DNA of 64,000 nucleotides from assembly GCA_016194335.1 (NCBI GenBank), contig JACQBR010000008.1, positions 864 to 64,863 on the forward strand, given 5' to 3'. Origin of the DNA: Candidatus Micrarchaeota archaeon. Its GTDB lineage: Archaea > Micrarchaeota > Micrarchaeia > Norongarragalinales > UBA97. Of this stretch, positions 1,391-51,334 are shown one piece after another. Position 1 is the first letter of the stretch, and each line of letters begins with the position of its first letter. The notes beneath the pieces are model-generated. The model saw nothing but the letters and a program-made list of their open reading frames with translations. It was not told where the DNA came from and did no database searches. The position numbers were made by a program, and so were the translations under genes.

Positions 1391-1546
1391 CCATTGCATG
1401 TGCCCGGTGCCCGCACTTGAACGAGTGTGCGGCAGTGCCGGGGAAGTGTTAAAATTCATTACCTCCCCAAATCCTATTCCTGGGGTTTGATTTTCCCAAT
1501 ACCCTGAATGCCCGTGTTTTCCTTCCTGGAGTTGCCTTAGCCAAAG

Positions 1547-2392: not shown

Positions 2393-2913
2393 CAATCGCG
2401 TCTTTCCTTCTCGAGCGCAACGACTACTTCAGCGTGAGAAACATTCCCGGCCGGACGCAAAAAATCGCAATCGCCGCCGCGCTCGAGTCCCTCTCGTTCG
2501 TGACCAACATACTTCCAGGGGAGGAGAATGGTTCCATCGGGAGGGTTGAGGTGAACGCCTCGTTTGAAAACGAATCCGCAGTGAGGGATGCAGTCGCAGC
2601 CGCGTCCCCCAACGGCACGGCAGAAGTCGTTTTCGCAAACACCACCCTCGACGCGGATGTCGTCATCGCGGATGCGACGGCGTTTGGCGCGGTGGCGTCG
2701 TTTGCCGGAAGCAATGGCCTGCTGTTGCGCAAGAGGGTGAAGGCGGCCCTGTCCAATCCCGCGGAAGTCCAGCGGCAGGTGCAGGCGGTGATTCCCACTC
2801 CCATCGACGCGGCGGTGTTCTACTACCACGGCAACGGCTCGGTTGTCAACCTCTCCATTTCGGTCCTCTCAAGCGGTGGAAGGGCCCTTAGCGTGAATGC
2901 GCGCGAGGATTGA
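2389..2913 (+). CDS. Extracellular glycoprotein, part 2. C-terminal continuation of 1547..2392 in a different frame
   Basis: NxS/T sequons NGSIGR, NASFENES, NGTAEV, NTTLDA, NGSVVNLS. The frame stays open upstream of the nominal start and overlaps the end of the previous ORF. Confidence 0.45.
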   Translation: MTIASFLLERNDYFSVRNIPGRTQKIAIAAALESLSFVTNILPGEENGSIGRVEVNASFENESAVRDAVAAASPNGTAEVVFANTTLDADVVIADATAFGAVASFAGSNGLLLRKRVKAALSNPAEVQRQVQAVIPTPIDAAVFYYHGNGSVVNLSISVLSSGGRALSVNARED

Positions 2914-2984
2914 GTGGGGTTAAAAACGGTTTTGGGGCTTAAGATTATTTTCCAGATGAGAAATTTGATTTTTGGGGGAATGAT

Positions 2985-3680
2985 TTGCGCATGTCTGTCC
3001 AACCAGTGAAGAAAGGCGATTTTGTCGAGCTTTCGTTCGAGGGGAGGCTCGCATCCGGCGGGGAGGTTTTCGAGAAGGCCCAGAGGCCAATCCTCGCGAT
3101 CGTGGGCGAAGGGCAGCTCGTGCCCGGCCTCGACTCGGCCTTGGTCGGCGCAATGCCGGGAGAGGAGAAGTCGGTTGAGATTGACGACCCGGCAATGGCG
3201 TTCGGCGTGAGGACGGAGGAGCTCGTGCGCCTCGTTCCCGCCGAGCAGTTCACCAAGCAGGGAGTCACCCCGGTTGCCGGAATGCAGGTGGAGCTTGACG
3301 GCGCGACGGCAAGAATCCAGTCGGTGAGCGGCGGCCGCGTGAGGGTTGACTTCAACCACCCCCTTGCAGGGAAGAAAATCGCCTACAGCTTCAAGGTCGA
3401 GAAGTCATTCCTCACTCCCGAGGAGAAGGTTTCCGCACTTGCCAAAAACTTCCTTTCCGGCTCGCCCGCAAAATTCGAGGCGGGCGTGGCGGCCGCAACG
3501 GCTGGCGAGGGGGTGCGCAAGGACGCGGAATACACCATTGGGAAAATGAGGTTCGTCAGCCTCGCGCTCAAGTTCGTGCCCGAAGTCAAACGCGTCACCG
3601 TGCTCGAGGAGTATGCAGCGACGGAAGGGAAGGCCGCGACGGAAGGGATGGCAGCAGCGGAAGGGACGCCCGGGCAGTAG
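2985..3680 (+). CDS. FKBP-type peptidyl-prolyl cis-trans isomerase, long archaeal type with an IF/chaperone insert
   Basis: VKKGDFVELSFEGRL...GEVFE, VPGLDSALVGM..GEEK, RVDFNHPLAGK. These are canonical FKBP/SlyD-family motifs. Confidence 0.85.
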   Translation: MRMSVQPVKKGDFVELSFEGRLASGGEVFEKAQRPILAIVGEGQLVPGLDSALVGAMPGEEKSVEIDDPAMAFGVRTEELVRLVPAEQFTKQGVTPVAGMQVELDGATARIQSVSGGRVRVDFNHPLAGKKIAYSFKVEKSFLTPEEKVSALAKNFLSGSPAKFEAGVAAATAGEGVRKDAEYTIGKMRFVSLALKFVPEVKRVTVLEEYAATEGKAATEGMAAAEGTPGQ

Positions 3681-4791: not shown

Positions 4792-7700
4792 ATGGTTAAC
4801 GACGTAAAGGATTTGGAAGAGCTTGTGAATTCCGTCTTGCCCCCCCAGTGCGAGCTTTCAAAAATAGAGCTCGAAGGCCCCCAGGTTGTGCTTTACCTCA
4901 AGAACATGCACGCGTTCTACGCCGACGTTAACCTCATCACGCGAATCGCTTCGAAAGTCCGCAAGAAGGTGCTCGTTCGTTCCGATTCCTCCATCCTAAT
5001 GCCTCCCGAAAGGGCGAAGGAAAAGGTCGCCGGCCTCATTCCCCCCGAGGCGGGAGTGAAGGAAATCCGTTTCGACCCGCATTTCAACGAGGTGCTCATC
5101 GAGGCCGCAAAGCCCGGGGTGGTAATCGGCAAGGGCGGAAGCGTGCTGAAAAGCATCACGCTCACCACCGGATGGTCCCCCCGCGTGCTCCGCGCGCCCA
5201 CGATGCCTTCCGAAATTGAGACTGCAATCCGAAACGCACTGCTTGCGGGCTCGGAGCAAAGGAAGAAATTCCTAGGGGTTTTTGGCAAGAGGATGCTGGG
5301 CGCCCCGGCCGCAACCGAGTGGGTGAAGATGACCGCGCTGGGAGGCTTTCGCGAAGTGGGCCGCAGCTGCTTTCTTTTGCAGACCCCGAAGAGCAACGTG
5401 ATTGTCGACTGCGGGCTCAACATCGACACCAGCGACGCCACGCGCGCCTATCCCTATCTCAACGCAATGGGGCTTTCGCTTGAGCAGATTGACGCGGTCA
5501 TCCTTTCGCACGCGCACCTCGACCACTGCCTCCATCCGGATTCCCTCATCCAGCTTGCAAACGGCGAAATAAGCAGCATTGAAGATTTGGCAGAACACGG
5601 CGGGGACGTCGTTTCTTACGATTTCGTTTCCGGCGCAACTGCAGGCGCTGTTGCAAGCAAGGGCGCTACTCAAAAGCCGGAAATGCTCAGGATCAAGACC
5701 AATTTATTCAGCATCCGCGCCACGCCAGAACACCGCTTTTTCGTCGTCAACGGCCTTGACGTGAGGGAAAAGCGCGCGGGAGAGCTGCGCGAGGGCGATT
5801 TCGTGGCGGCGCTGCGTTCAAGCAAATTCGAGGGAGCGGCAAACCAGCCTCTGCCCTTGGTGAAAGTGCAGGAGCTCGCTTTCATTTCGGGGGAAGGCAG
5901 GCTGAAAATGCGCCAAACGCGCGAGTCGTTCAAGCTGACCCGCAAGCAGGTTGCAGCAATTGCCGGAGTGCCGGCATGCCAATACGCATGGCTCGAATCG
6001 GGCAGGCACAAGCCGTCGAGGGAAAATTTGCAGAAATGCCTGCAGGCGCTGGGCCTGAAAACTCAGGATTTTGGGAATGAGGTTTCTGCAATCAAGTCGG
6101 CCGAGTTGCCCAAATTTTCAAGTGAGGAGTTCTGCCAGTTTTTGGGCTACGTCCTCGGCGACGGGAACGCGCACTATCAGGCGCACGATGCCAATTGCAA
6201 TGATTTGGCCGTGACGGACAAGGACGTGGCGAACCTCGAGTTTTACGCCCAGCTTGCAGAAAGGGTGTTCAATACAAAGCCGCGCTTTTCGCTCAAGGCG
6301 GGAACAAATGGCGGGAGAAACCGGGTGTTCTTCTCGTCCTACGTGACGAAGCTGATGTTCGCCTTGGACAAAGGGATTATTTGCCGCAGCCGCCAGCGCC
6401 GCGTACCCAAAATGATTCAGCGTGCGTCCAACGCCGAACTGGCCGCTTTCTTCCGCGGGCTTTTTGACGCCGAGGGGTCCGTGGGCCACCACTCGGTGAG
6501 GCTGGTCTCTTCAAGCGAGATGCTCTTGCGCGTGGCGCAGATGCTTCTATTGAGGCTGGGCGTGCAAAGCTGCATTGAAGAGCGCAAGGCGGTTTCGCAA
6601 AAAGCATTCTCCAAAGAGCCGTTCTACTGCCTTGCCATCACCCATCCCCGGTCGCTTTACGCATTCGGGGAGAAGATAGGCTTCTCATCAGAGGCGAAAT
6701 TGCAGAAATTCAAGGCGATGGCCGCCACCGTAGGCAATGCGCGCTCCGGAAAGGTTGACCTAATACCGATTGACGGTGCGGCGCTTAGGGCCGAATTGGC
6801 GGATGCGGGGTTGTTCGAAACCGATTTCGACTCCAGAATCTCCCGTTACTGGAACTGGAGCCACGCGCCGAGCAGGGAGGCAGTTGATGGAATCTGCGCG
6901 GGAATCGAAGCGCGTTTGCAGCTGCTGAAGACGGCTTCATCGCGGCAGGAGCTGCGAATAACGCAAGGGCAGGTCGGAAAGGCTTTGGGAGTGGACCAGT
7001 CGGTAGTTTCGGCAATCGAGCGCGGCAGAATCTCTTCGTGCAGCATTATCTACCGTGAGACGCAGGAGTTTTTGCACCTCTCCAGAGAAACCTGCATTTC
7101 AAAAGCGGAGCAACTTCTTCTCAAGTTGCGGATGCTCGTCTCGCAGGAGCTTGCGTGGGTGAAAATCAAGTCGATTGAAAATGAAACCCCGCCGGAGAAG
7201 GTTTACGACCTGAGCGTCCCCGGTTACGAGAACTTCGTTGCGGACGGTTTTGTCGTGCACAACTCCGGTTTCATCCCCTACCTCTACGCCTACGGCTACG
7301 AAGGCCCGGTCTACTGCACGCCCCCCACGCGGGACATGATGGTGCTTCTCCAGCAGGACTGCGTGAACGTGATGAATAGCGAGGGCGGCAAGGCCCCTTA
7401 CGGCGAGAGGGACATCAAGAAGGAGCTCATGCACGTGATCACCCGCGAGTACGGAGAGGTGACCGACGTGACGAGCGACATCCGCTTCACCTTCCACAAC
7501 GCGGGGCACATGATTGGAAGTTCCATCGTGCACATCCACATCGGCGAGGGCATGCACAACCTCATCTACTCCGGCGACATCAAGTTCGGCCGCACGAAAC
7601 TCTGCGACACCGCATCTACGCAATTCCCCCGCGCCGAGACGCTGATGATAGAGGCGACTTACGGCGGGCGCAACGACATCAAGCCGCGAATCGAGGATTG

Positions 7701-8424
7701 CGACGCGAAGCTCTCCGAAATCATCCGCACCGCAACCGGCCGCAGAGGCAAGGTCCTCATTCCCGTCCTCGCCTCTGGCCGCGCGCAGGAGCTGATGCTC
7801 ACGCTTGAGGAGCAGTTTTCCAACCCCGACTTCACCGTCTATATGGACGGCATGAGCCGCGAGGCAAGCGCAATCCACACTGTATATCCGGAATACCTGC
7901 GCCGCAACATCCAGCGCCGCATCCTGCAGAACGACTCGCCTTTCGACAAGCCGATGTTCAAGAACATACAGAACAACGACCACCGCAAGGCCATTGCCGA
8001 GTCGGACGAGCCCGCTGTGATTCTCGCGCCAAGCGGGATGCTCACCGGGGGGCCCAGTGTCGAGTTCCTCAAGCTGCTTGCCGACGACGCGCGCAATTCC
8101 CTCGTATTCGTGAGCTACCAGGGCGCACTCACGCTGGGCCGCAGGCTCCAGCAGGGGGAGAGGGAAGTGCCGGTGCTCAACCGCGCGAACAAGCAGGACT
8201 CGCTGAAGATTAACATGGCCGTGCAGAGCATCGAAGGCTACTCCGGCCACTCCGACCGCTCACAGCTCGTCGCGTGGACGCGCAACATCCGCCCCAAGCC
8301 CTCGCGCATCTTCACAATGCACGGCGAGGAAGGAAAGTGCGAGGAGCTCGTGCGCACGCTGGGCAAGATGCTCCACGTCCAGACGCAGGTGCCGATGAAC
8401 CTCGACAGCATCAGGCTGAAGTAG
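4792..8424 (+). CDS. aCPSF1/FttA (KH plus metallo-beta-lactamase plus beta-CASP ribonuclease), interrupted by a 579-aa intein
   Basis: N-terminal KH domains. MBL motif HAHLDH is followed directly by Cys. The extein resumes SGFIPYLYAYGYEGPVYC... The extein is 631 aa, a typical aCPSF1 length. Confidence 0.9.
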   Translation: MVNDVKDLEELVNSVLPPQCELSKIELEGPQVVLYLKNMHAFYADVNLITRIASKVRKKVLVRSDSSILMPPERAKEKVAGLIPPEAGVKEIRFDPHFNEVLIEAAKPGVVIGKGGSVLKSITLTTGWSPRVLRAPTMPSEIETAIRNALLAGSEQRKKFLGVFGKRMLGAPAATEWVKMTALGGFREVGRSCFLLQTPKSNVIVDCGLNIDTSDATRAYPYLNAMGLSLEQIDAVILSHAHLDHCLHPDSLIQLANGEISSIEDLAEHGGDVVSYDFVSGATAGAVASKGATQKPEMLRIKTNLFSIRATPEHRFFVVNGLDVREKRAGELREGDFVAALRSSKFEGAANQPLPLVKVQELAFISGEGRLKMRQTRESFKLTRKQVAAIAGVPACQYAWLESGRHKPSRENLQKCLQALGLKTQDFGNEVSAIKSAELPKFSSEEFCQFLGYVLGDGNAHYQAHDANCNDLAVTDKDVANLEFYAQLAERVFNTKPRFSLKAGTNGGRNRVFFSSYVTKLMFALDKGIICRSRQRRVPKMIQRASNAELAAFFRGLFDAEGSVGHHSVRLVSSSEMLLRVAQMLLLRLGVQSCIEERKAVSQKAFSKEPFYCLAITHPRSLYAFGEKIGFSSEAKLQKFKAMAATVGNARSGKVDLIPIDGAALRAELADAGLFETDFDSRISRYWNWSHAPSREAVDGICAGIEARLQLLKTASSRQELRITQGQVGKALGVDQSVVSAIERGRISSCSIIYRETQEFLHLSRETCISKAEQLLLKLRMLVSQELAWVKIKSIENETPPEKVYDLSVPGYENFVADGFVVHNSGFIPYLYAYGYEGPVYCTPPTRDMMVLLQQDCVNVMNSEGGKAPYGERDIKKELMHVITREYGEVTDVTSDIRFTFHNAGHMIGSSIVHIHIGEGMHNLIYSGDIKFGRTKLCDTASTQFPRAETLMIEATYGGRNDIKPRIEDCDAKLSEIIRTATGRRGKVLIPVLASGRAQELMLTLEEQFSNPDFTVYMDGMSREASAIHTVYPEYLRRNIQRRILQNDSPFDKPMFKNIQNNDHRKAIAESDEPAVILAPSGMLTGGPSVEFLKLLADDARNSLVFVSYQGALTLGRRLQQGEREVPVLNRANKQDSLKINMAVQSIEGYSGHSDRSQLVAWTRNIRPKPSRIFTMHGEEGKCEELVRTLGKMLHVQTQVPMNLDSIRLK
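5527..7263 (+). mobile_element. Intein (579 aa) with a LAGLIDADG homing endonuclease and an HTH domain, inserted in the aCPSF1 MBL motif HAHLDH|SG
   Basis: Begins with Cys (CLHPDSL), ends with ..VVHN and the +1 residue is Ser. Internal LAGLIDADG blocks FLGYVLGDGNAHY and FFRGLFDAEGSV. HTH segment LTRKQVAAIAGVP. Confidence 0.85.
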
Positions 8425-8429
8425 TTAAC

Positions 8430-8843
8430 TCAAACAATCGTGATGTCGCTGAACTTTTCGAAATCCCGGTCAGCCGTGACGATGCGGTTTATTCCTGCGC
8501 GTATGAGTGTGAGGTAGATGACGCAGTCGGTGTATTTCACGCCCAACCTGTCGCATAGAATCAGGGCGTCTTGGAAAATGTCGGCCGGTTCCGCCACCAC
8601 CCTGTTTTTCTCTTCCTCGTAGAGCTTGCTTATGACCTTGGCGCAAACCGCACGATTGTACCGGCGGTGGAGGATGTTTGCAAGCTCGACAATCACGGTA
8701 GTTGGAATTGCGACCGTAGCTTCGGCATAGGCTTTGTCGAGTTTTGACGCCGTCTTTTCGGCAATCCTTCTCTCTTCAGGAGTAAACCGTGAAGGGTCGC
8801 TCACATAGTAATAGAGTGCGCTAGTGTCTACTCCAATTTCCAA
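8430..8843 (-). CDS. vapC: PIN-domain toxin VapC
   Basis: PIN-like acidic residues in a roughly 135-aa protein. It overlaps the upstream antitoxin gene by 16 nt. Confidence 0.7.
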   Translation of the reverse strand: MEIGVDTSALYYYVSDPSRFTPEERRIAEKTASKLDKAYAEATVAIPTTVIVELANILHRRYNRAVCAKVISKLYEEEKNRVVAEPADIFQDALILCDRLGVKYTDCVIYLTLIRAGINRIVTADRDFEKFSDITIV

Positions 8844-13163: not shown

Positions 13164-14861
13164 TTATCTGTATCGAAGGAACGCGCCGATGCCCTTGAAC
13201 GTTCCGTAGAACTGGTCGCCCTCTGCCGTTTCGCGCGATATCATCTCAACCACCACCCCCCTCTCCTCTGCAAGGCCGATGATGTCGTTGATGAGGTCCG
13301 TCTCTTTCTCAATCCTGAACTTTCCGCTCTTGCACTCGCTGCAGTCCTCCATGTGGGCGTTGTTGGTGCTTTGGATGGTCTTGGAAAAGCCGCACTGGCC
13401 GCACTTGAGCTGCAGTTCGTAGAGGTTCTGGTTTTCGCTTACGAGAAGCATCTTGGCCTGGTTGGCCTCAATTGCCTTTTTCACGTTGCCGTAGTTGGAG
13501 ACCACGAGCCCGCCGCGCACCGCCTCCTTGAGGAATTCGTCAAGAAGCTTCTTTTCCCTCACCGCCTCCTGCTCTGAAATCAGGTCCGAGGCCTTCTCCA
13601 TCACTTCCCTAAGGCCGTACTCGTCGGTATAGCCCGTGTCGACGATGCCGAGAATCTTGAGCTGGTAGTTGAACGGCGCGGCCTTCACCAAATCCTCCTT
13701 CGCCGGCCCCGGCCCTCCGACAATGACGCCCTTGAAGTTCTTCACCTCCAGAAACGCCGCCATCGCCTCGCCGATGCGCTCCTGGAAATACTCGATTCCC
13801 TCCTCGCGCAGCCGCGAGAAGCGCTGGGATGAGTTGTGCGCGACAATGCCGTTTGCGATGAAGTTCTCGTTCCCGGGTATTTCGAGGTCGTAGAAAAATG
13901 CCGTTGGATTGCGAATCACTTGAATAAAATCGATGGGGGAAATTGAGAGCTGGGAGAGAAGGGAGATTGAAGAGGTTGAGGCATTTTCCGCCGTAGAGTG
14001 GTTTAAATTCCCTTTTGAAAGCAGGCGTTCGCCGACGCTGAGGTCTTCTGCAAACCTTTCCCTCACCCTGCCGTTTTCGGAAACGAAGAAGCGGTGCTCT
14101 TTGGTGGCAATTATTTCTCCGCCGTTTCCAGTCTTGATTAGGAGCGCATCGTCAGAATTTCTCGCAAAAACATTGATGCATTCCTGTTCTTCAAATAGCT
14201 GGGTTTTCCAGTTGAACGAGAGCAGTTTATCTCCTGGCTTAACTTCCCGAATTTCCTTTATTTCCCCGCTGGCCATTTGCACCAACGTTTTTTCATGGAG
14301 GCACTGTCCACCTTTATGAGTCTTGGCATGCGCGGTCGAGTGGATTTGCTTGATGACTTTTATGTTCTTGCCCTTGAGCACCGCCACGGTCGCTTCCTTG
14401 CCGTCCATCACCACCAGCCCGTAAGCGCCGCTGTGCTCCACAAGCTCCTCAAGCGGCTCGAGGACGAAAGTGGATTCGCAGCGGTAGAACTGGGCGTTGA
14501 GGGGAACGGGCGGGACGATGGAATAGAGCTGCAAATCCTGCCTCCCTTCGGTTTCGGAGAGGTTGCCGCAGAAAATCGCCATTCCCGTCTTTGGCGTTTC
14601 GCGAAACGTCTTGAGGTACTGCACTATCTTTTCCAGCGCGGCAATCACGTTCTTGCGCGTGGAGGTGCTCTTGATGTTCGTCGCCGCGCCGGCCTCTTCC
14701 TTGAGCTTGCCGGCAATCTCGCTGATGGGATAGCCGGGAGTCATGTACACGCTGATGAGCTCGGTTCCCCTGCCCCGGAATTCCCTAAGCGACTTTATCT
14801 GCTTCTTGAACTCGTAAATCTCCCTGCTCTTCTGCGAGGAGAGGTCAGCACTGATTGCCAT
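13164..14861 (-). CDS. prf1: Peptide chain release factor aRF1, interrupted by a 157-aa mini-intein
   Basis: eRF1 domains. TAHAKTHKGGQ is followed by Cys, and the extein resumes SSQRFSRLRE. C-terminal zinc ribbon CGQCG...CSEC. Confidence 0.9.
   Translation of the reverse strand: MAISADLSSQKSREIYEFKKQIKSLREFRGRGTELISVYMTPGYPISEIAGKLKEEAGAATNIKSTSTRKNVIAALEKIVQYLKTFRETPKTGMAIFCGNLSETEGRQDLQLYSIVPPVPLNAQFYRCESTFVLEPLEELVEHSGAYGLVVMDGKEATVAVLKGKNIKVIKQIHSTAHAKTHKGGQCLHEKTLVQMASGEIKEIREVKPGDKLLSFNWKTQLFEEQECINVFARNSDDALLIKTGNGGEIIATKEHRFFVSENGRVRERFAEDLSVGERLLSKGNLNHSTAENASTSSISLLSQLSISPIDFIQVIRNPTAFFYDLEIPGNENFIANGIVAHNSSQRFSRLREEGIEYFQERIGEAMAAFLEVKNFKGVIVGGPGPAKEDLVKAAPFNYQLKILGIVDTGYTDEYGLREVMEKASDLISEQEAVREKKLLDEFLKEAVRGGLVVSNYGNVKKAIEANQAKMLLVSENQNLYELQLKCGQCGFSKTIQSTNNAHMEDCSECKSGKFRIEKETDLINDIIGLAEERGVVVEMISRETAEGDQFYGTFKGIGAFLRYR
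13833..14303 (-). mobile_element. Mini-intein (157 aa, no endonuclease domain) inserted immediately after the GGQ motif of aRF1
   Basis: CLHEKTL...IVAHN with +1 Ser. Removing it restores GGQSSQRF, which matches the consensus GGQSA.RF. Confidence 0.85.
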
Positions 14862-35815: not shown

Positions 35816-35888
35816 GGGGGATTGGGGTAGCCTGGCATCCTACCAGCTTTGGGAGCTGGTGACCTGAGTTCGAATCTCAGATCCCCCA
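35816..35888 (+). tRNA. tRNA-Pro (anticodon TGG)
   Basis: Acceptor gggggat/atccccc, U8, anticodon loop tTTGGga, T-arm ctgag-ttcgaat-ctcag. 73 nt with no encoded CCA. Confidence 0.75.
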
Positions 35889-35941
35889 CTAAACCTTTTC
35901 TGCGGTGCTCCTCACTTCGTTCGTCCGCCCCTTGAAACGCG

Positions 35942-38272: not shown

Positions 38273-38399
38273 CCCGCTGTAGCTCAATCTGGCAGAGCAC
38301 CTGACTGTAGCCAAAAAGCGCGCTTGCACGAATGCGATGAATGCAAGCCAGTCCTCGTCAGAAATCAGGGTGTTGGGAGTTCAAATCTCCCCAGCGGGA
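38273..38399 (+). tRNA. tRNA-Tyr (anticodon GTA) with a 53-nt intron at the canonical 37/38 position (38311..38363)
   Basis: Acceptor cccgctg/cagcggg, D-arm gctc..gagc, anticodon stem cctga/tcagg, loop cTGTAg then the intron, T-arm gggag-ttcaaat-ctccc. Confidence 0.75.
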
Positions 38400-38470
38400 C
38401 CTTTTTTGTCAATAAGCCGGCTGGTTTCTTGGCCGAATTCCTTTTTCCCAAGGCATTTGCTTGAGCCGCC

Positions 38471-38695
38471 TTAAGTCTTGTCCTTCCTGAATGGGGCGCC
38501 GATTGTTCCGTTGCGTGTTTCTTCAAAGGTTGGCGGGTTTGAAACCACTTGTGTCAAGTCGCGGTTCCGTCTTTCCTCGTGTAACAGGAGCCTTGCTTCG
38601 AACGAACTTTCCTCCAAGCTTGTTGAAAGCGGCTTGAGTTTTTCTTCAATCAGTTCATAGTCGGGCTTTATCCCGTTTTCCAGAAGGTATGCCAA
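38471..38695 (-). CDS. Hypothetical small protein (74 aa)
   Basis: ORF only. Confidence 0.2.
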   Translation of the reverse strand: MAYLLENGIKPDYELIEEKLKPLSTSLEESSFEARLLLHEERRNRDLTQVVSNPPTFEETRNGTIGAPFRKDKT

Positions 38696-38827
38696 GTCGC
38701 AGGCGTCACGCGGCTTTGGCCGGTGGTAGATGGCGCGTATTTTTTTGATTCTTTATTGCGAAAGTTAGCTTAAGTCCTCTCCGGAACCCAACTTTTTTCC
38801 GGTTCACCCAGTGTGGCCTTTGCCGAT

Positions 38828-39114: not shown

Positions 39115-39187
39115 GCCTTGGTGGTGTAGCGGTCTAGCATAATGGCCTGTCACGCCGTTGACTCGGGTTCGAATCCCGACCAGGGCG
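39115..39187 (+). tRNA. tRNA-Asp (anticodon GTC)
   Basis: GCCTTGGTGGTGTAGC...CTGTCAC...TCGGGTTCGAATCCCGACCAGGGCG closely matches archaeal tRNA-Asp. Confidence 0.85.
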
Positions 39188-39220
39188 CCTCTTCTTCTTT
39201 CCAGCCCTCTCGCGCGAGGG
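39177..39220. repeat. Direct repeat copy 1 (44 nt), starting with the last 11 nt of tRNA-Asp. att-like
   Basis: cgaccagggcgcctcttcttctttccagccctctcgcgcgaggg is identical to 40412..40455. Confidence 0.8.
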
Positions 39221-39426
39221 CATCCAGCTTGGAGTTCACATCCCCTAACGGGGCGCTTAACCGCATGCGCCGAAATAGGGGTTCACTCAATGTTCAGTCC
39301 GCACAGCTTACTTTACAATCGATTGTTAGGGCGTGTGCCTAAGAGTTCTACCCGCATGTTTTAGGCATACTTTTTATAGACTAAATGTGTGCTAAGCCTT
39401 AAATAGTCCGCCTGCCTATTACTCGC

Positions 39427-40359
39427 ATGCGCACGCGGCTCAAGGTGGTGAACGGCCGGCAGTATTACTATCTGGAGGAGTCCATCCGGCTTGAGAAGCC
39501 AGTGGTCTACTCTGTTTTTTTGGGCAAGCGGATTCCCGCAAAAAAAGAGCTTGAAGCGAAGAAGGAGGGGTTGCTCGCCAAGATGTACGGCTCGCTTCTG
39601 GCTGGAGCAGAACGCCTCTTCCTTTCGCGGGAGCAGCTCGTTGAAGCCGAGAAGCTGCGTAGGCGATACGTGCAAAAAGTCAGGAAACTCGGCAAGGTTG
39701 CGCGGGATGAGAGGGAGGAAGTGGATGCAGTCAATTTCGTCTACACCACGCTTACCACCGAAGGCGTTCCTATTACCAGAGAGGACGCCAATCTTGCCTA
39801 CAAGTTCGACAGAAAGAATGTCAAGAACCTGCGCGACGAGAACCTGCGCGTTGCGCTCGACATGATCAAGGGCCTCAGGTTCGTCAAGGAAGGCAAGAAA
39901 GGGCTAACGCTTGATTTCCTAGCCAGGCTGCACGGCATCATCATGGCGCAGTACGGTGAACGAGCGCCTGGAGAATTCCGTTCAAAGCAGGCATACATTT
40001 ACCTCAAGAGCTACCAGCGGGCTGAAGAAATAGGCTTTCGGCCTCCAGCCCACCAAGAGGTAACGAAAAAACTCCGTGAGCTCGTCGAATGGTACAACGC
40101 CAACGAGGGAACGCTAAACGCCATCGAACTGGCCGCCCTGCTGCACCTGCGCTTTTACATGATTCACCCGTTCGAGGACGGCAACAAACGCGTTTCAAGG
40201 CTCTTGCTCAACAAGGCCCTCTTCGACAAGGGCTATCCCCTGCTAAACATCTCGAAAGACTCCCGAAGCTATTTCGACGCGCTCATAACCGCGGTCGAAC
40301 GGAGGGACGAAAAAGCCTTCGTGCAATTCGTCTACGAACAATTCATCGCACGCAAGTAG
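39427..40359 (+). CDS. fic: Fic/Doc-family protein (putative AMPylator)
   Basis: HPFEDGNKRVSRLL is a variant of the Fic motif HxFx(D/E)GNGRxxR. It sits between the att-like direct repeats. Confidence 0.8.
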   Translation: MRTRLKVVNGRQYYYLEESIRLEKPVVYSVFLGKRIPAKKELEAKKEGLLAKMYGSLLAGAERLFLSREQLVEAEKLRRRYVQKVRKLGKVARDEREEVDAVNFVYTTLTTEGVPITREDANLAYKFDRKNVKNLRDENLRVALDMIKGLRFVKEGKKGLTLDFLARLHGIIMAQYGERAPGEFRSKQAYIYLKSYQRAEEIGFRPPAHQEVTKKLRELVEWYNANEGTLNAIELAALLHLRFYMIHPFEDGNKRVSRLLLNKALFDKGYPLLNISKDSRSYFDALITAVERRDEKAFVQFVYEQFIARK

Positions 40360-40411
40360 TCGGGAGTTCCTTTTCCGTTCTCGGGGACGGCCCATCTGAC
40401 GGCCAGCCATG

Positions 40412-40455
40412 CGACCAGGGCGCCTCTTCTTCTTTCCAGCCCTCTCGCGCGAGGG
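40412..40455. repeat. Direct repeat copy 2 (44 nt), att-like
   Basis: Identical to 39177..39220. It is followed by ggcgtgtgcctaa, which also occurs at 39329-39342 about 110 nt downstream of copy 1. Confidence 0.8.
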
Positions 40456-40709
40456 GGCGTGTGCCTAACCTTTGGCGCGTAGCCCTTTCAAGGCGCTCCA
40501 ACTCCCGTCTGCCCGCCGATGGCATTTCGGAAGCGGAACGTTTAACCTTTTTTTAAAACGGCCGCGCATAGACTATCGTGCCGCTCCCCTAGAAGGCACC
40601 CCTGAAAACGCGCCTTTTTCCCCTTCTTTCTTTATTGGCTTTCTTTCGGGATTATTGTAGTGCCTAACTCTTTCCGGTTGAGTGCAAAACGCCCGGTCAT
40701 GCCAATCGC

Positions 40710-42016: not shown

Positions 42017-42295
42017 ATGGGAATGCATGGAACGTGCAAGAAGGTAATGGGCGTTTTGGTTTTGGCATCGGGCGTCGCCTTGGCAATGGGCGGGTGGGGC
42101 TATCTCACCGTCACCGGCGCGCTTAAGGTGGCCGGCGTTCTCTTCGTGCTCAAGGGCCTTTCTGCACTTGCCCACTCGATGAACATGTGCCCCCAGTGCA
42201 GCGAGGCTTGCGGCCACGGCGGCAATTGCGACTGCGGCCACGGGGGATGCTGCATGCAGGAAAAGGCGGCCGCGCACAGGGGCAGGCGCAGGTAA
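42017..42295 (+). CDS. Small 2-TM membrane protein with a C-terminal Cys/His-rich metal-binding tail
   Basis: MGMHGTCKKVMGVLVLASGVALAMGGWGYLTVTGALKVAGVLFVLKGL then CPQCSEACGHGGNCDCGHGGCC. Confidence 0.4.
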   Translation: MGMHGTCKKVMGVLVLASGVALAMGGWGYLTVTGALKVAGVLFVLKGLSALAHSMNMCPQCSEACGHGGNCDCGHGGCCMQEKAAAHRGRRR

Positions 42296-46321: not shown

Positions 46322-49300
46322 ATGAAGGTCATTGGTGCGATTGAGTTCGGCGTTTTCTCCCCCGAGCAGGTGCGCAAGATGTCGGCCGTGAAGATCACCG
46401 TGCCCGACACTTACGACGAGGACGGCTACCCCATCAACGGCGGGCTTGCCGACCAGCACCTCGGCGTCATCGACCCGGGCCTGCGCTGCAAGTCCTGCGG
46501 CGGCCGCATGAAAAGCTGCTCGGGCCACTTCGGCCACATTGAGATGGTGCGGCCCGTCATCCACGTGGGGTTCGCAAAGGCCGTTTACCACCTGCTCAAG
46601 GCGACGTGCCGCAAGTGCTCCCGCCTGCTTGTCGAGGACAGCACTTTTGAGAAGCCCAAGAAGGCCGCGGTCTGCCCCCACTGCGCCGAGCAGCAGGGCG
46701 CGATAAAGTTTGTCAAGCCCACGAGCTTTTTCGAGGACGTGGGCGGCAAGGAAAGGAGGCTTTTGCCCAACGAAGTTCGCGAGAGGATGGAGCACATTTC
46801 CGACGAGGACCTCAACACCCTCGGCGTGAAAATCAGGCCCGAGTGGATGGTCCTTACCGTCCTCATCGTCCCTCCGGTCACCGTGCGCCCCAGCATCACC
46901 CTTGAGACGGGCGAGCGCAGCGAGGACGACCTCACCCACAAACTCGTGGACGTGCTGCGCATCAACCAGCGCCTCGGCGAGAACATCGACGCCGGCGCCC
47001 CGCAGCTCATCATCGAGGACTTGTGGGAGCTTCTCCAATACCACGTCGCGACTTTCTTCGACAACGAGACCGCAGGCATCCCGCCTGCAAGGCACCGCAG
47101 CGGAAGGCAGCTCAAGACGCTCTTCCAGCGCCTCAAGGGCAAGGAAGGCAGGTTCCGCTACAACCTTTCGGGCAAGCGCGTGAACTTCAGCGGCCGCACC
47201 GTCATTTCCCCCGACCCCACCCTCGGCATCAACGAGCTCGGGGTTTCCGAGCACATCGCAAGGGAGCTTACAGTCCCGATTTTCGTCACCGAATGGAATC
47301 TCGAGCCCATCAAGGAGCTTGTCAAGGGCCATCCGGAAAAAATCAATTACGTCATCCGCCCCGACGGCAAGCGCAAGAAGCTCATCGGCCTCAACATCGA
47401 GGAAGTGACGGCGGAAATCGTCCCCGGCTACACTGTGGAGCGGCAGCTTATGGATGACGACATCGTGATTTTCAACCGCCAGCCCAGCCTCCACCGCGTG
47501 AGCATGATGGCCCACCACGTCAAGGTCCTTCCGGGAAAGACTTTCCGCTTCAACTCCGCCGTCTGCAAGCCGTACAACGCCGACTTCGACGGGGACGAGA
47601 TGAACATCCACGTTCCGCAGAACGAGGAGGCGCAGGCCGAGGCGGAAATCCTCATGAAGGCCCAGGAGCAGATCCTCTCCCCCCGCAACGGCGAGCCCAT
47701 AGTAGTTCCCGAGCTCGATCAGATTTCCGGCCTTTACATGCTTACCGCCAAGGGCGTGGAATTCCCCCGTTCGGAAGCGGCGATGATGCTTTCCCGCGCC
47801 GGCGTCAACGACGCCGAGTTCAAGGGGGAGAAGGTTTCAGGACGGGAAATCCTCTCCGCGATTCTCCCCAAGGAATTCGACTTCGAATGCGCCAGCCTCG
47901 CGTTCCACCAGAAGTGCAAGGAGTGCCCCGGGGGCAAGTGCGCCGAGCACGACTCCACCGTAGTGGTGAAGAACGGCAAGTTTTTGCGCGGCCATCTCGA
48001 CGGCCGCTCGAGCGACAAGCTCGTCCGCGCGCTATTCAAGGAATTCGGAAGCGACGCGGCGGCGAAATACCTCGACGCGGCAACCAAGATTTCCGTCGAC
48101 GTTGCCACCGACTTCGGCATCTCCCTCTCGCTTGACGACTACGCCATTACGGACAAGACCCGCGGGGAGCTCGGCGAGCTTTACCTCACGGCGCACAAGG
48201 GGGTGCGCAAGCTCATCCAGAAATACCGCATGAAGAGGCTCGCGCGGCTGCCCGGCAAGACGCTCAAGGAGACGCTGGAGGAGCAGGTGATGGACATCCT
48301 CGAGGCGGTTCGCCACGACGCGTGGGGCATAATCAAGACCCACGTGCGCAAGCACCCCGTGAAGTTCGGCGGGGCGGAAATAATGCACAACTCCGCGCTT
48401 CTCATGGCCGACTCCGGCGCGAGGGGCAAGCCCATCAACGTCGTGCAGATGGCTGGCATCGTCGGCCAGCAGGCCGTGCGCGGAAAGCGCATGCGCTCAG
48501 GGTACAAGGGCCGCATCCTTTCCCACTTCGCAAAGGGCGACCTTTCCGACCTCGCGCGCGGGTTCGTGCGCGACAGTTACGTCCGCGGCCTTTCCCCCCA
48601 CGAGTACTTCTTCCACGCCGCAGGAGGCAGGGACAGCGTCGTTGACAAGGGAGTCAACCCCGCCAAGACGGGTTACATGCAGCGCAGGCTCATCAACGCC
48701 CTTCAGGACATCGTGGTGCAGAAGGACCTCACCGCAAGCGACGCGGAGGGGAAAATCATCCAGTTCAAGTACGGCGACGACGGGATGCACCCGGCGGGGA
48801 ACGCCGTGGCATACGGCGAGCCCGTGGGAGTGATCGCGGCTCAGAGCATCGGCGAGCCCGGAACGCAGATGTCCATCCCTTCGGGTGAAAAAGTGGTCGT
48901 AAGCATTGACGGCGCGATGAAACCCGTGGCAATCGGGGAGTTCGTGGACGGGCTCATCGAGAAGCATGGCTCGATCAAAATAGGCGGGGCTTCGGTTGTG
49001 GACCTTCCCCAAAGCGCAGGCATTTGCGTCCCCAGCCTCTCGCAGGAAGGCAAGGTTGTTTTCAAGAGGCTCATTTCCGCCAGCAGGCACGAGTGCGGAA
49101 AGAAAATCCTCGAGATAACCACGCGTTCGGGAAGGAAAATCCGCGCGACCGACAACCACTCCTTCGTCATCCGCAAGGACAACAGAATCATTCCCGTCAT
49201 GGGAAGTTCCCTCAAGGTCGGCCAGAGGATTCCCGTTGTCAAGTCCATGCCCTCCCCCGCACTGTTTGCCCAAGGTGCCGAGAGCCTTGATTTGCAGCAA

Positions 49301-51334
49301 CACCTTCCAAAGAGCACCCACTGGTTTGGAAGCGAACTCAAAAAGGCGCTTGCGCCGGGCGTGATAAGCCGCGCGGGCCACAATGTTTCGTACACTATTC
49401 CCGTGGGCGCGGATGCGTTAAGGCACTACGCGGGGCATGGGAATTCATTCGAAATCGAGGACGGCTTTGTCTATCCAGTGCAGAACCACGGCAACGCGAG
49501 GATTCCCGAATCAATGCCCCTCGACTCGAAATTCGGCTGGTTTGTCGGGGCCTACCTTTCCGAAGGCAGCCTGAGCAGGTACAACGTGGGCATTTCAAAC
49601 ACTGACTCCGAGTTCATCGCAAGGACGAAGGGATTCGCCGACTCCCTCGCGCTCAAATACGCGGAGAAGGCCAACAGCCGCGGCTTTGCCTTGGGCAACG
49701 GCCTTACCATCAATTCAACCCTGCTTTCCGAACTGTTGCAAAAGACCTGCGGCAAGGGCTCGTCAAGCAAGCGCGTTCCTGAATTCGCCTTCAGCGCAAA
49801 CGAAAAGTTCATCTCATCGCTTCTTTCGGCGTATTTCGATGGCGACGGCAACGTGACGATGGAGCGCAATGCGATTCGCGCCTCTTCCAACTCGAAGGAA
49901 CTGATTGACGGGGTTGCACTGCTGCTCTGCAGGCTTGGCATCTTCTGCACCAAGCACTTCGCTTCGGGCCAGCACTGCCTCTCCATTCCGGGGGCGTACG
50001 CAAACCGCTTCAGGGAGAAAATCGGCTTCGTGTGGGCCAAGAAGTCTTCCTTACTTGGGAAACTTTGCACCAAGGAAACCAAGCGCATCTCTTACGACAT
50101 TCTCGACATGAAAGTCGGGTTCGGAAGCGTGATAGGCGACGCCGCCAGGAAGCTCGGAGTGCCCTCCCGTTTGGTCAGCAAGTTCACCAAGAAGCAGGAA
50201 ATCGGCGTGAAGACGCTTGCGAAATACGTTGACAAGTTCGGGGAACTCTCGCGCCAAAATAGCATCAACGTGGATAAAGAGCTTTCCGTAATGAAAGCCA
50301 TGCTTGAGGAAGACGTGGCGTGGGACGAGATTGTCGAGGTGAAGTTCGTCGACTCCACGCCCCTGGTCTACGACTTTTCCGTCGAGGGGCTCGAGACGTT
50401 CGCCACCTTCGACGGCGTGATTACGCACAACACGCTGCGCACCTTCCACTACGCCGGAGTCGCCTCGCTCGCGCAGCTCGGCTTCACCCGACTGGTGGAA
50501 ATCGTCGACGCGACCAAGAAGCCGAAGAGCCCCGTGATGGAAGTCTACCTTCGCAAGGAGCTTTCCAAGGACTTCGAGAAGGTCAAGAAGTTCGCCGCTT
50601 CTCTTGAGCAGCTCACGCTGGAGCAGGTTGCCGATGTGAGGGAGAATTTCGACCGCAAGAGCATCCGCGTCACCTGGGACGAGAAGTCGCTTCACGACAA
50701 GGCGGTGAAGGAAGACGAGATTTTCGAGAAGGTCAAGCTCGTCGCCCCCGCGGAGAAGACCCAGACTGGAATCACCGTCCGCCCCAAGGCAGACAGCATC
50801 CGCAACACCCGCAAGATCACCAACAAGCTTCGCGAAATCATCCTGCGGGGAGTGGCGAACATTTCCCGCGCCATCATCATCGAAAAGGCAGGGGAGTACG
50901 TCGTGGCGACGGAAGGGAGCAACCTCGAAGGCTTGCTGAAGATTCCCGAAGTGGACTCCTCGCGCACCACCACCAACGACATTACCGAAACCTACCACGT
51001 GCTCGGGGTGGAGGCCGGCCGCAACTCCATAATGAACGAGATGCTCAAAGTGCTCACCGCCCAGGGGCTCAAGGTCGACGCGAGGCACATCATGCTCATT
51101 GCCGACTCGATGACCTCCAAGGGCAAGCTCACTTCAGTCGGAAGGCACGGCCTTGCGGGGGAGAAGAGATCCGTCCTCGCGCGCGCGGCCTTTGAAGAGA
51201 CTGCCAAGCACCTCCTCAACGCCTGCATCAAGGGCGAGGAAGACCCCCTTCAGGGAATTGCCGAGAACATCATCATCGGCCAGACCATCCCCTGCGGGAC
51301 GGGCAAGGTCAAGCTCGAGATGACCATTGAGTAG
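46322..51334 (+). CDS. rpoA: DNA-directed RNA polymerase subunit A with the A' and A'' portions fused in one ORF, interrupted by a 520-aa intein
   Basis: Rpb1 zinc ribbon and the NADFDGD active site lie in the N-terminal part. GEPGTQM is followed by the intein, then TLRTFHYAGVA of the A'' region. There is no stop codon between the A' and A'' regions. Confidence 0.9.
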   Translation: MKVIGAIEFGVFSPEQVRKMSAVKITVPDTYDEDGYPINGGLADQHLGVIDPGLRCKSCGGRMKSCSGHFGHIEMVRPVIHVGFAKAVYHLLKATCRKCSRLLVEDSTFEKPKKAAVCPHCAEQQGAIKFVKPTSFFEDVGGKERRLLPNEVRERMEHISDEDLNTLGVKIRPEWMVLTVLIVPPVTVRPSITLETGERSEDDLTHKLVDVLRINQRLGENIDAGAPQLIIEDLWELLQYHVATFFDNETAGIPPARHRSGRQLKTLFQRLKGKEGRFRYNLSGKRVNFSGRTVISPDPTLGINELGVSEHIARELTVPIFVTEWNLEPIKELVKGHPEKINYVIRPDGKRKKLIGLNIEEVTAEIVPGYTVERQLMDDDIVIFNRQPSLHRVSMMAHHVKVLPGKTFRFNSAVCKPYNADFDGDEMNIHVPQNEEAQAEAEILMKAQEQILSPRNGEPIVVPELDQISGLYMLTAKGVEFPRSEAAMMLSRAGVNDAEFKGEKVSGREILSAILPKEFDFECASLAFHQKCKECPGGKCAEHDSTVVVKNGKFLRGHLDGRSSDKLVRALFKEFGSDAAAKYLDAATKISVDVATDFGISLSLDDYAITDKTRGELGELYLTAHKGVRKLIQKYRMKRLARLPGKTLKETLEEQVMDILEAVRHDAWGIIKTHVRKHPVKFGGAEIMHNSALLMADSGARGKPINVVQMAGIVGQQAVRGKRMRSGYKGRILSHFAKGDLSDLARGFVRDSYVRGLSPHEYFFHAAGGRDSVVDKGVNPAKTGYMQRRLINALQDIVVQKDLTASDAEGKIIQFKYGDDGMHPAGNAVAYGEPVGVIAAQSIGEPGTQMSIPSGEKVVVSIDGAMKPVAIGEFVDGLIEKHGSIKIGGASVVDLPQSAGICVPSLSQEGKVVFKRLISASRHECGKKILEITTRSGRKIRATDNHSFVIRKDNRIIPVMGSSLKVGQRIPVVKSMPSPALFAQGAESLDLQQHLPKSTHWFGSELKKALAPGVISRAGHNVSYTIPVGADALRHYAGHGNSFEIEDGFVYPVQNHGNARIPESMPLDSKFGWFVGAYLSEGSLSRYNVGISNTDSEFIARTKGFADSLALKYAEKANSRGFALGNGLTINSTLLSELLQKTCGKGSSSKRVPEFAFSANEKFISSLLSAYFDGDGNVTMERNAIRASSNSKELIDGVALLLCRLGIFCTKHFASGQHCLSIPGAYANRFREKIGFVWAKKSSLLGKLCTKETKRISYDILDMKVGFGSVIGDAARKLGVPSRLVSKFTKKQEIGVKTLAKYVDKFGELSRQNSINVDKELSVMKAMLEEDVAWDEIVEVKFVDSTPLVYDFSVEGLETFATFDGVITHNTLRTFHYAGVASLAQLGFTRLVEIVDATKKPKSPVMEVYLRKELSKDFEKVKKFAASLEQLTLEQVADVRENFDRKSIRVTWDEKSLHDKAVKEDEIFEKVKLVAPAEKTQTGITVRPKADSIRNTRKITNKLREIILRGVANISRAIIIEKAGEYVVATEGSNLEGLLKIPEVDSSRTTTNDITETYHVLGVEAGRNSIMNEMLKVLTAQGLKVDARHIMLIADSMTSKGKLTSVGRHGLAGEKRSVLARAAFEETAKHLLNACIKGEEDPLQGIAENIIIGQTIPCGTGKVKLEMTIE
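48872..50431 (+). mobile_element. Intein (520 aa) with a LAGLIDADG homing endonuclease, inserted at GEPGTQM|TLRTFH of RpoA''
   Basis: Starts with Ser (SIPSGEKVVV), ends VITHN with +1 Thr. Internal LAGLIDADG blocks GWFVGAYLSEGSL and LLSAYFDGDGNV. Confidence 0.8.

Follow-up and report, generated by a model that had tools for sequence, protein, structure and literature searches.

A single-gene Fic cassette, probably integrative, at the 3' end of tRNA-Asp in Micrarchaeota

The stretch of DNA analyzed here (64,000 nt; hereafter the window) comes from the chromosome of a Micrarchaeota (DPANN) archaeon, is rich in core genes and holds a gene for a Fic-family protein between two direct repeats, the first of which starts inside the 3' end of a tRNA-Asp gene. 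The tRNA-Asp(GTC), the putative attachment-site gene, is intact and occupies 39115-39187 on the + strand (ARAGORN; full-length match to the Rfam tRNA model at 59.2 bits, model positions 1-71). ARAGORN places its end at 39189, and with the Rfam end at 39187 the 44-nt repeat CGACCAGGGCGCCTCTTCTTCTTTCCAGCCCTCTCGCGCGAGGG begins 11 nt inside the gene and therefore includes its final 11 nt. The repeat is present in exactly two copies in the 64-kb window, both on the + strand, at 39177-39220 and 40412-40455, and 100 dinucleotide shuffles of the window yielded no match to it at three or fewer mismatches. A second, 14-nt repeat, GGGCGTGTGCCTAA, lies at 39329-39342 and 40455-40468 and overlaps the final G of the 44-mer; on the left side only, the two repeats are separated by a 108-nt segment (39221-39328) that is missing at the right copy, has no further copies elsewhere in the window and matches no Rfam family. 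The sole convincing gene between the repeats (39427-40359, + strand) encodes a 310-residue protein with a Pfam Fic match (1.2e-20) and the active-site motif HPFEDGNKRVSR. The original prediction, which was made from the sequence alone, had listed an exact 44-nt repeat running out of tRNA-Asp, the 14-nt sequence behind both copies, the left-only segment and a Fic gene with a GNKR variant of the motif as the only gene between the repeats, and all of these were recovered with the same coordinates.

The arrangement is not an assembly artifact, as it recurs in three more assemblies or contigs, namely one contig of an NCBI metagenome-assembled genome (MAG; 99.6% identical) and two Logan contigs of other runs. 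The Logan contig L003 reaches exactly from the last 30 nt of the left repeat, through the unit between, to the first 30 nt of the right repeat, which is the expected behavior of a k=31 graph at a 44-nt repeat, so that this contig is silent on a circular form. Within the MAG GCA_016212415.1, contig JACRGI010000035.1 stops exactly at the final base of the tRNA core (39188) and contig JACRGI010000018.1 begins within the 108-nt segment (39299); these breaks may reflect strain heterogeneity in the sample at that point.

The unit between the repeats is composed of a series of parts, all on the + strand. It is preceded by a 12-nt, attL-like core, CGACCAGGGCGC (39177-39188), made up of the final 3 nt of the T-stem, the 3' acceptor strand, the discriminator and 1 more nt, and the same 12-mer terminates tRNA-Asp in two relatives, L005 and L084. 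In the left copy of the 44-nt repeat (39177-39220) this core is followed by a C/T-rich trailer and then by the 5' strand and loop of a small hairpin, GCCCTC-N6-GAGGGC (39204-39221), which folds as DNA at -5.8 kcal/mol (z = -2.2; 7 of 200 shuffles were equally good) and has equivalents after tRNA-Asp in L084 and after a tRNA remnant upstream of Fic in another locus, L087. The first ~24 nt of the 108-nt segment (39221-39328) have a homologous counterpart behind the tRNA-Asp of L084 (84% identity in blastn between window 39124-39244 and L084 4673-4793), and its last ~24 nt, from AGCTTAC at 39305 on, open a region that proved conserved when the upstream regions of ~20 Fic loci were compared. The segment is confined to the left side, as had been noticed, but it is not an extra insertion in the first copy; rather, it is ordinary cassette sequence, and the right-hand copy is the deficient one.

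The conserved upstream region (39305-39426) has the same layout in front of Fic in ~20 Micrarchaeota loci and is a putative promoter/operator region. It contains operator box 1 (GGGCGTGTGCCTAA, 39329-39342), an inverted box (TTAGGCATAC, 39361-39370), operator box 2 (AAATGTGTGCTAAGCC, 39383-39398) and a TATA-like element (TTAAATAG, 39399-39406), 21 nt ahead of the ATG. The boxes conserved in the 120 nt before the Fic ATG read GTGTGCCTAA, inverted TTAGGCATAC and ATGTGTGCTAAG, followed by the TATA-like element, and the consensus over ~20 Micrarchaeota species (loci L084-L109 and L148) runs TTRYCTTAC, ATGTGTGCTAA, inverted TTAGGCAYAC, ATGTGTGGTAAG and a TATA-like box. This conservation suggests that the Fic cassette carries its own regulated promoter. 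Behind the gene, a distal arm, GGGGACGGCCCATCTGACGGCCAGCCATG (40383-40411), is the counterpart of a conserved arm, GGGAGGTCTAGCC..GCTAGCCATG, at the sites of L084 and of a further relative, L109, of which it retains only the GGGG start and the GCCAGCCATG end. The right copy of the 44-nt repeat (40412-40455) follows, its first 12 nt forming an attR-like core, and straight after it stands the second copy of operator box 1 (GGGCGTGTGCCTAA, 40455-40468), which is also present in the sister strains L001 and L002. The sequence at 40424-40468 resembles the left end of the Fic cassette minus the 108 nt (trailer, hairpin and box 1), and the right flank may therefore be the remnant of a second Fic-type cassette with an internal deletion.

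We compared the locus with 80 RpoB'' loci of other Micrarchaeota species, each with 10-kb flanks. None of the 80 has Fic upstream of the rpo operon within that distance, so the position of Fic beside this operon is not ancestral. The closest of the 80, L005 (JAGVFW01; RpoB'' 82% identical), is collinear with the window over 34.0-39.2 kb, that is up to tRNA-Asp, and again from rpoH, and its site is empty: the end of tRNA-Asp, ...CGACCAGGGCGC, runs directly into tcttcttttttccttagcgcaaagctttttcttccctcgctgccctctttagtc (tcttcttttttcc...ctcgctgccctctttagtc), followed by ORF206 and a VIT1-like gene. L084, a groundwater contig whose Fic is 84% identical, has the DUF167 gene and tRNA-Asp as in the window, and its right flank is that of L005 (89% identity between L084 6966-7037 and L005 7013-7088; VIT1-like genes 88% identical). 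Between the tRNA core and this right flank L084 carries an insert of 2.24 kb with ORF244 and Fic, bounded by the 12-nt core. L005 and L084 thus form an empty and occupied pair that breaks exactly at the final nucleotides of the tRNA. An integrative insertion at the tRNA 3' end, which was the central proposal of the original prediction together with a call for relatives with an empty tRNA-Asp site, is in this way supported by one relative that is empty and one that is filled at exactly the same point.

The tRNA-Asp genes of this pair have a peculiarity of their own. In both L084 (4621-4737) and L005 (~6908-7024) a 42-43-nt insertion follows tRNA-Asp position ~10, and Rfam covers model positions 9-63 only; the interruption is apparently a non-canonical intron, and the tRNA-Asp of the window is uninterrupted. 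A free-standing LAGLIDADG endonuclease-like open reading frame (ORF) of 232 aa (L005 6194-6892, + strand; Pfam LAGLIDADG_3, 8e-11) sits between the DUF167 gene and the interrupted tRNA-Asp of L005, and is missing in the window and in L084. L084 has, upstream of its tRNA-Asp region (1195-3069), an AAA_21/AAA_15 ATPase gene and then an RloB-domain gene, which look like a defense pair of the OLD or abortive-infection type.

At tRNA-Asp, the number of similar cassettes without a recombinase ranges from none to three among relatives, so that this tRNA is a small site of gene capture. The insert of L084 has two full sites of the form GGGAGGTCTAGC-N4/5-GCTAGCCATG + CGACCAGGGCGC + TCTTCTTTTT, one after ORF244 and one after Fic, and a truncated third site (...GCTAGCCATGCGAC) adjoins the Fic promoter region. 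The contig of L109 (Fic 82% identical) starts within tRNA-Asp (...ttcgaatccCGGCCAAGGCGCc) and has three cassettes behind it, in the order Fic and a site, ORF287 (a predicted membrane protein) and a site, and an Na_H_Exchanger gene with ORF193 and a site; the three sites read GGGAGGTCTAGCCnnnnGCTrGCCATG and then CGGCCARGGCGC, and after the last of them comes a trailer closely like that behind the tRNA-Asp of L109 itself. When ten junctions of tRNAs and cassettes were aligned, the 12-nt core, which is the local tRNA-Asp 3' end, was the only block common to all of them, and the arm ahead of the core was also common to the seven distal sites. The core alleles follow the local tRNA-Asp, with CGACCAGGGCGC in the window, L005 and L084, and CGGCCAAGGCGC in L109, L023 and L044; in the last two of these, tRNA-Asp is an uninterrupted gene ending in CGGCCAAGGCGC. 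A proximal arm, TTTACYCCGGCTAGGCTCCCTYACG, opens several cassettes (after the tRNA of L084, at sites 1 and 2 of L109 and after the tRNA remnant of L087). The Fic gene is next to the tRNA in the window and in L109 and distal in L084, with other cassettes interleaved. The window holds a single complete cassette, and two or more related sites less than 4 kb apart occur only in relatives (three in L109; two and a partial one in L084). What had been taken for a decayed or minimal element is thus no isolated relic and belongs to a set of small cassettes that occur in arrays at tRNA-Asp.

The perfect identity of the repeat over 44 nt has a different origin from its core. In L084 and L109 the match between tRNA site and distal sites extends over just 12-13 nt, and in the sister strains L001 and L002 (99.2-99.6% identical to the window) the right copy differs from that of the window at 7 positions (6 substitutions, 1 indel; all within 40422-40445) and reads CGACCAGGGCACCTCTTCTTTTTCCCAACTCCCCCCGCGCGAGGG. 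The left copy of L002 equals that of the window. Over 2.5 kb L002 and the window show 20 differences, of which 7 are inside the right 44-nt repeat and 1 is in the 1,190 nt between the repeats, a pattern which argues that two sites already alike over ~44 nt existed and that one of them was converted in one lineage. The exact 44-nt identity would then be secondary, the product of recent site-to-site recombination (gene conversion or crossover), and not the primary footprint. The repeat that was read as the footprint of an element is accordingly real, although its exactness probably stems from recent homogenization in this strain, and relatives share just the 12-13-nt core.

Taken together, precise empty and filled sites, a common site architecture and arrays are present at tRNA-Asp. 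With moderate confidence, we read 39189-40423 as a single-gene integrative cassette of 1,235 bp, inserted by site-specific recombination at the extreme 3' end of tRNA-Asp and belonging to a family of tandem cassettes, a reading that supports the integrated element of the original prediction in part, upholding its essence and correcting its detail. The layout of the cassette would be a 12-nt core, trailer and hairpin arm, promoter/operator, Fic, a distal arm ending in GCYAGCCATG, and again a 12-nt core. On insertion, an intact tRNA would be regenerated at the left and a copy of the last 11-12 nt of the tRNA left at the right; a recombinase supplied in trans would move the cassettes; the right site would afterward have been homogenized to the left over 44 nt by gene conversion or crossover; and equally small cassettes, with Fic, unknown membrane proteins and an Na+/H+ exchanger as cargo, would pile up in tandem behind tRNA-Asp. 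Integrases classically use three sublocations within tRNA genes, one of which is the far 3' end of the acceptor stem. The precise junctions, the shared 12-13 nt, a length characteristic of recombinase cores and low for homologous recombination, and the target-unrelated arm before each distal core all favor a site-specific recombinase over homologous recombination.

No such recombinase was identified at the locus. Integrase-type Pfam domains were absent from the ORFs of the window that were submitted (almost every one of 200 aa or more), and no recombinase was found among the ORFs of the L084 cassettes or on the fetched flanks. Nor was there an SSV-type int(N)/int(C) pair across the repeats, the ORFs that cross them being short and unconserved (an ATG in the arm yields a 19-aa peptide); the earlier remark that recombinase and split int fragments are both lacking thus holds for the Pfam-tested ORFs of the window and for the ORFs crossing the repeats. 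Fic itself was considered for this role and ruled out, since it is an ordinary FICD-like Fic protein with a small N-terminal sheet and has no nuclease or recombinase fold. The recombinase may be encoded elsewhere in the genome, or on an element outside the sequences seen here, and act in trans. Two specific att patterns had no match in IMG/VR, and the 38 matches to an att 17-mer there, about the number estimated for chance, are all armless and lie in seemingly unrelated coding sequence.

Fic also occurs at places other than tRNA-Asp. Its gene in L087/L092 (Fic 79%) stands after that for a 1,304-aa protein, preceded by CGGCCAAGGCGC + TTTACCCCGGCTA and a hairpin and followed by GGCTAGCGTGCGACC|CACACG; the left junction of L087, CGGCC|AAGGCGC, and the right one, GCGACC|CACACG, agree with a secondary site at which the crossover took place inside the core. 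In L106 (Fic 65%) decayed cores flank the gene on both sides at the same distances from it as in the window. The Fic cassette unit therefore occurs with decayed sites at non-tRNA positions, in the constant orientation of core, proximal arm, promoter, Fic, distal arm and core at all sites, and no extrachromosomal copy or IMG/VR match was found for it.

Other lineages have Fic between direct repeats of quite another sequence. A 108-nt repeat (94%) at 5776-5883 and 6946-7053 of L104 exactly brackets a Fic cassette of 1,062 nt, and represents the last 87 nt of the upstream gene, for a 409-aa protein with a C-terminal membrane anchor, and 21 nt downstream of it. In L093-L095, Fic is bracketed by parts of a small RNA (sRNA)-like element containing ...CGGAAATGACCTGTGTGTCT...GGACGGTCTGATGC, of which GGACGGTCTGATGC corresponds to the guide and D' box of a putative C/D-box sRNA conserved in many loci; the elements that flank Fic had no Rfam match. 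In L094 a gene for an MNT-like nucleotidyltransferase (211 aa) and one for a HEPN-like protein (147 aa) lie directly after Fic (7260-8283), flanked by a 129-nt sRNA-like repeat (94.6%) at 6952-7079 and 8404-8531. These cases (L104 and L093-L095) may represent a similar platform anchored at further RNA genes, or else homology-driven movement of the Campbell type or an insertion into repeats that were already there. Six further Fic loci (L098, L100, L101, L105, L107 and L148) have no significant flanking repeats. The sRNA-like sequence is itself widespread: a motif of the form ATGAYGA-N3-ACGGACGGT-CTGA-TGC...CTGA recurs in L051, L052, L054-L056, L059 and L060 (minus strand, upstream of rpoB'') and in L094 (at 735), L095 (at 1201) and L099 (at 327). 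It resembles a fixed-guide C/D-box sRNA, again with no Rfam match, and parts of it flank Fic in some lineages; more partial copies of the L094 repeat lie at 687-790 and 5790-5866. Approximately 2 kb upstream of Fic on another Micrarchaeota metagenome contig, L102 (2327-2469, - strand), Rfam identifies an RT-16 RNA with 65.9 bits, above the gathering score.

Several results weigh against reading the locus as a cassette placed by a tRNA-specific recombinase. Neither a recombinase nor a free or circular attP form was found, the distal arm of the window is poorly conserved compared with those of L084 and L109, and its hairpin has a z of ~0. An empty site was not seen in the window's own species, exact-protein look-ups of the DUF167 and LamG neighbors giving no match and a 72-aa DUF167 call (P0121) leading only to contigs that stop at or within the left repeat. 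The region from the right repeat to rpoH (a LamG-domain gene and a small Cys-rich ORF) differs from that of L005, which makes the local history more than that of a single insertion. The identities of Fic and RpoB'' run roughly parallel (84 versus 82, 79 versus 68 and 64 versus 67), and much of the history of Fic may be vertical, with only occasional relocation. Finally, the lineage-specific repeats of L104 and L093-L095 differ so much from the tRNA-Asp core that one tRNA-specific recombinase does not account for them. Homologues of DUF167 and of the 553-aa protein upstream were sought as a route to more tRNA-Asp loci, and in both cases the query itself was the sole match.

The most serious competitor to the integrative cassette, which we nonetheless judge improbable, is movement by host homologous recombination of the Campbell type, in which a circle carrying Fic and a conserved host stretch integrates by a single crossover, duplicates the stretch and can pop out again. 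The variation of the flanking repeats by lineage (44 nt in the window, 108 nt at 94% in L104, ~155 nt in L095 and 16 nt in L093) speaks for it, as do the lack of a recombinase in the tested ORFs of the window and the L084 cassettes, the clear recombination of the two repeats with each other in the window species, and the conservation of the targets between species, as homology-driven transfer requires. However, the 12-13 nt available in L084 and L109 are too little for efficient RadA-type recombination, the junctions fall at the identical tRNA nucleotide in three species, every distal core is preceded by a conserved arm without homology to the target, and the L087 junctions resemble a core crossover at a non-homologous secondary site.

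We also doubt that the locus is the decayed remnant of one larger virus or plasmid whose integrase was lost once in an ancestor, leaving Fic to descend vertically and immobile at tRNA-Asp. The window, L084 and L109 are fairly close, with Fic at 82-84% matching RpoB'' at ~82%, the codon usage of Fic is fully host-like, and elements that lost their integrase and were captured at tRNA genes are on record for archaea (She et al. 2001, cited in PMC8371274). Yet the flanks of L005 and L084 are 79-88% identical at the nucleotide level, closer to each other than either is to the window, and L005 is cleanly empty, which requires a precise gain or loss after the split of the window and L084. The order of Fic relative to the tRNA varies, proximal in the window and L109 and distal in L084 with cassettes interleaved, the compact unit occurs with att remnants at non-tRNA sites as well, and the repeats enclose no pseudogene remains of further element genes.

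That nothing was inserted, and that the tRNA 3' end and trailer were copied next to a resident Fic by segmental duplication, slippage or misassembly, is already disfavored and in our view very improbable, for although the right copy has the 14-nt operator box and resembles a partly deleted duplicate of the left, and the MAG contigs break at 39188 and 39299, the three further assemblies or contigs agree, the GCYAGCCATG arm before the core is common to L084 and L109 sites that bound unrelated genes, a relative has the empty site, and Fic is beside the rpo operon in none of the 80 relatives.

The integrative cassette at tRNA-Asp could also be part of something wider. A tentative extension, which we regard as possible but rather unlikely, is an integron-like capture platform in Micrarchaeota on small RNA genes (tRNA-Asp and the sRNA-like element), at which recombinase-less cassettes with Fic, MNT-HEPN or transporter genes would be inserted, stacked, shuffled and excised by a recombinase acting in trans, each cassette ending in a conserved arm and a copy of the 3' end of the RNA gene, with Fic itself kept as a cassette.

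Functionally, the arrays seem closest to archaeal tRNA gene capture and to the bacterial cis-mobilizable elements (CIMEs) with their tandem accretion, and more loosely to integrase-less integron arrays. CIMEs and tandem accretion at att sites were reportedly described for ICESt1-related islands of Streptococcus thermophilus. Like the cassettes, CIMEs are att-flanked, lack recombination genes, stand in tandem at one site and are presumably moved by the integrase of a related element; they are, however, bacterial, use the 3' end of a protein gene and derive from a known integrative and conjugative element, whereas here the host is a DPANN archaeon and there is no known autonomous partner. Integrative mobile elements exploiting Xer (IMEX), such as CTX-phi, integrate via the host Xer recombinases and are flanked by repeats of the host site. 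They share with the cassettes the lack of a recombinase of their own and the repeats of a host site, but the site here is a tRNA end and not dif, and any use of XerA at this locus is pure speculation. Archaeal tRNA-targeting elements and gene capture (She et al. 2001, as cited in PMC8371274) have in common with this locus a direct repeat of the tRNA 3' end around foreign DNA, a regenerated tRNA and elements that may end up trapped with no functional integrase. The unit here differs from such captured elements in that it measures 1.2 kb and holds one gene, with no int(N)/int(C) or element debris, recurs across species and stacks in arrays despite being tiny, and has a gene conserved throughout the phylum, and not viral or plasmid genes, as cargo. 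The lack of a split int gene means that it fails the test for an SSV-type provirus.

Integrons and clusters of attC sites lacking integrases (CALINs) resemble the cassettes as arrays of one- or two-gene units that end in a conserved site, often with no integrase nearby, and with toxin-antitoxin-like genes and genes of unknown function as cargo. They differ in that no IntI is encoded in the Pfam-tested ORFs of the window and insertion is at a tRNA 3' end instead of attI; upstream of tRNA-Asp lie the DUF167 gene, tRNA-Tyr and the gene for a 553-aa protein of unknown function, and no IntI. An attC-like hairpin in the arm was considered and rejected, because the arm folds with z values of -0.5 to +1.0 against shuffles and has no GTTRRRY or R/L boxes. 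The Fic cassette furthermore has its own conserved promoter. Without IntI and attC structure, and with cassettes that carry their own promoter, the arrays fail the definition of an integron. The description of archaeal integrons by Ghaly et al. 2022 (PMC9668308) makes no mention of Micrarchaeota or tRNA sites, and a shallow literature search found no paper on such arrays in Micrarchaeota. The genomes of DPANN archaea are tiny, and their ways of gaining and moving genes are poorly known; minimal cassettes anchored at a tRNA would be a simple device for gene shuffling. The main value of the locus lies in these arrays, which offer a starting point toward the responsible recombinase, and in the unusual Fic enzyme that is found throughout the phylum.

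The Fic protein has an N-terminal three-stranded sheet, the inhibitory motif TLTTEG in cis, which lies on the N-terminal side of the Fic core, and the active site HPFEDGNKRVSR. Its nearest solved relative is human FICD, whose TVAIEG aligns with TLTTEG, and the AlphaFold model (predicted local distance difference test score of 92) has FICD/HYPE and BT_2513 as its top fold matches (Foldseek E ~1e-10 for FICD). An identical protein is encoded in the MAG GCA_016212415.1 (Candidatus Micrarchaeota archaeon), and the database holds 270 relatives, of which the best 120 are 57-100% identical (at least 60% barring partial alignments) and nearly all 310 aa long. The named sources among these best 120 are all Micrarchaeota; one (P0047) is labeled bacterium and is probably misbinned. 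On clustering of a library at 50% identity, all family members fall into a single cluster, with the next relatives at 44% or less. Among the same 120, TL[TSN]TEG is found in every sequence and HPFxDGNKR in 118. Of the class II features, the Fic fold is present, while the motif HxFx(D/E)GNGRxxR has its second Gly replaced by Lys in those 118; homologues farther away that share the N-terminal VxGKxYYYL sheet carry GNGR, the canonical form.

Inhibition in cis means that an antitoxin gene is neither needed nor present: the 240 nt upstream of Fic are the conserved non-coding promoter region and hold no Phd gene. The question of a cognate antitoxin or inhibitory helix, left for checking when the element was first proposed, is answered by the internal motif and the absence of a partner gene. 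From its conservation and motifs, Fic would be a lineage-wide, strongly constrained and self-inhibited class II (FICD-like) enzyme and not a two-gene toxin-antitoxin module. It shares with FICD/HYPE the fold and the inhibitory TxxxEG aligned with TVAIEG, and departs from it in GNKR (Lys for the second Gly), in having no TPR or membrane anchor and in its distinct N-terminal sheet. With Doc of Phd-Doc it shares an exact match to the Doc consensus HxFx(D/N)(A/G)NKR, in which a Lys at motif position 8 inverts ATP so that phosphate, and not AMP, is transferred (PMC4177925). Doc is, in contrast, a small six-helix protein with a separate Phd gene, whereas the protein here has 310 aa, an eight-helix FICD-like core, internal inhibition and no partner. 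The Doc-type lysine predicts phosphotransfer rather than AMPylation, and the family could be a test case for a lysine that converts AMPylation to phosphorylation. With its FICD-type helix and Doc-type lysine, the family makes a good candidate as a regulatory enzyme with housekeeping duties in Micrarchaeota, perhaps with translation factors as targets.

The idea that an element delivered a Fic effector or toxin is not supported. The protein belongs to a tight family that spans Micrarchaeota, and the codon usage of 39427-40359, suggested at the outset for comparison with the host, is host-like, with GC (0.543), GC at third codon positions (0.70) and distance in relative synonymous codon usage (0.115) all in the range of host genes, which rules out compositional foreignness. 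Close relatives were also sought on mobile DNA; there are none in IMG/VR, and the matches in PLSDB and INPHARED are less than 35% identical over most of the protein, so that a viral or plasmid origin is rejected. Fic is conserved about as well as RpoB'' (82-50% across the phylum) and far better than SerRS (39% versus 73% for Fic in the L090 genome). The evidence for horizontal transfer of Fic is only suggestive, and consists of that difference in L090 and of Fic at 79% versus RpoB'' at 68% in JAGVWL; other pairs are congruent.

The core genes in the rest of the window include those for aCPSF1/FttA, TruD, aRF1, SerRS, PPDK, L10e, the proteasome alpha subunit and SBDS, and then the rpoH-rpoB''-rpoB'-rpoA operon, S7, EF-2, EF-1alpha and an arginase-family protein. 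Three of the core genes contain inteins, at 4792-8424 (+), 13164-14861 (-) and 46322-51334 (+): aCPSF1/FttA has an intein with LAGLIDADG and helix-turn-helix (HTH) domains, aRF1 a mini-intein, and RpoA, a single ORF of 1,670 aa, an intein with LAGLIDADG. Upstream of the rpo operon lie three tRNA genes, tRNA-Pro (35816-35889), tRNA-Tyr(GTA) and tRNA-Asp(GTC). That for tRNA-Tyr (38273-38401, +) has a 53-nt intron at the canonical position 37/38, and is found by Rfam and by ARAGORN -i and missed by default ARAGORN. Between it and the DUF167 gene, at ~38471-38749 (-), is a small ORF (92 aa in the MAG) with a weak Pfam match to AbiEii, a nucleotidyltransferase toxin. Another small ORF (42017-42295, +), just upstream of rpoH, ends in a tail rich in Cys and His, CPQCSEACGHGGNCDCGHGGCC; the MAG annotation has it as a gene of 92 aa, and part of it is conserved in L045.

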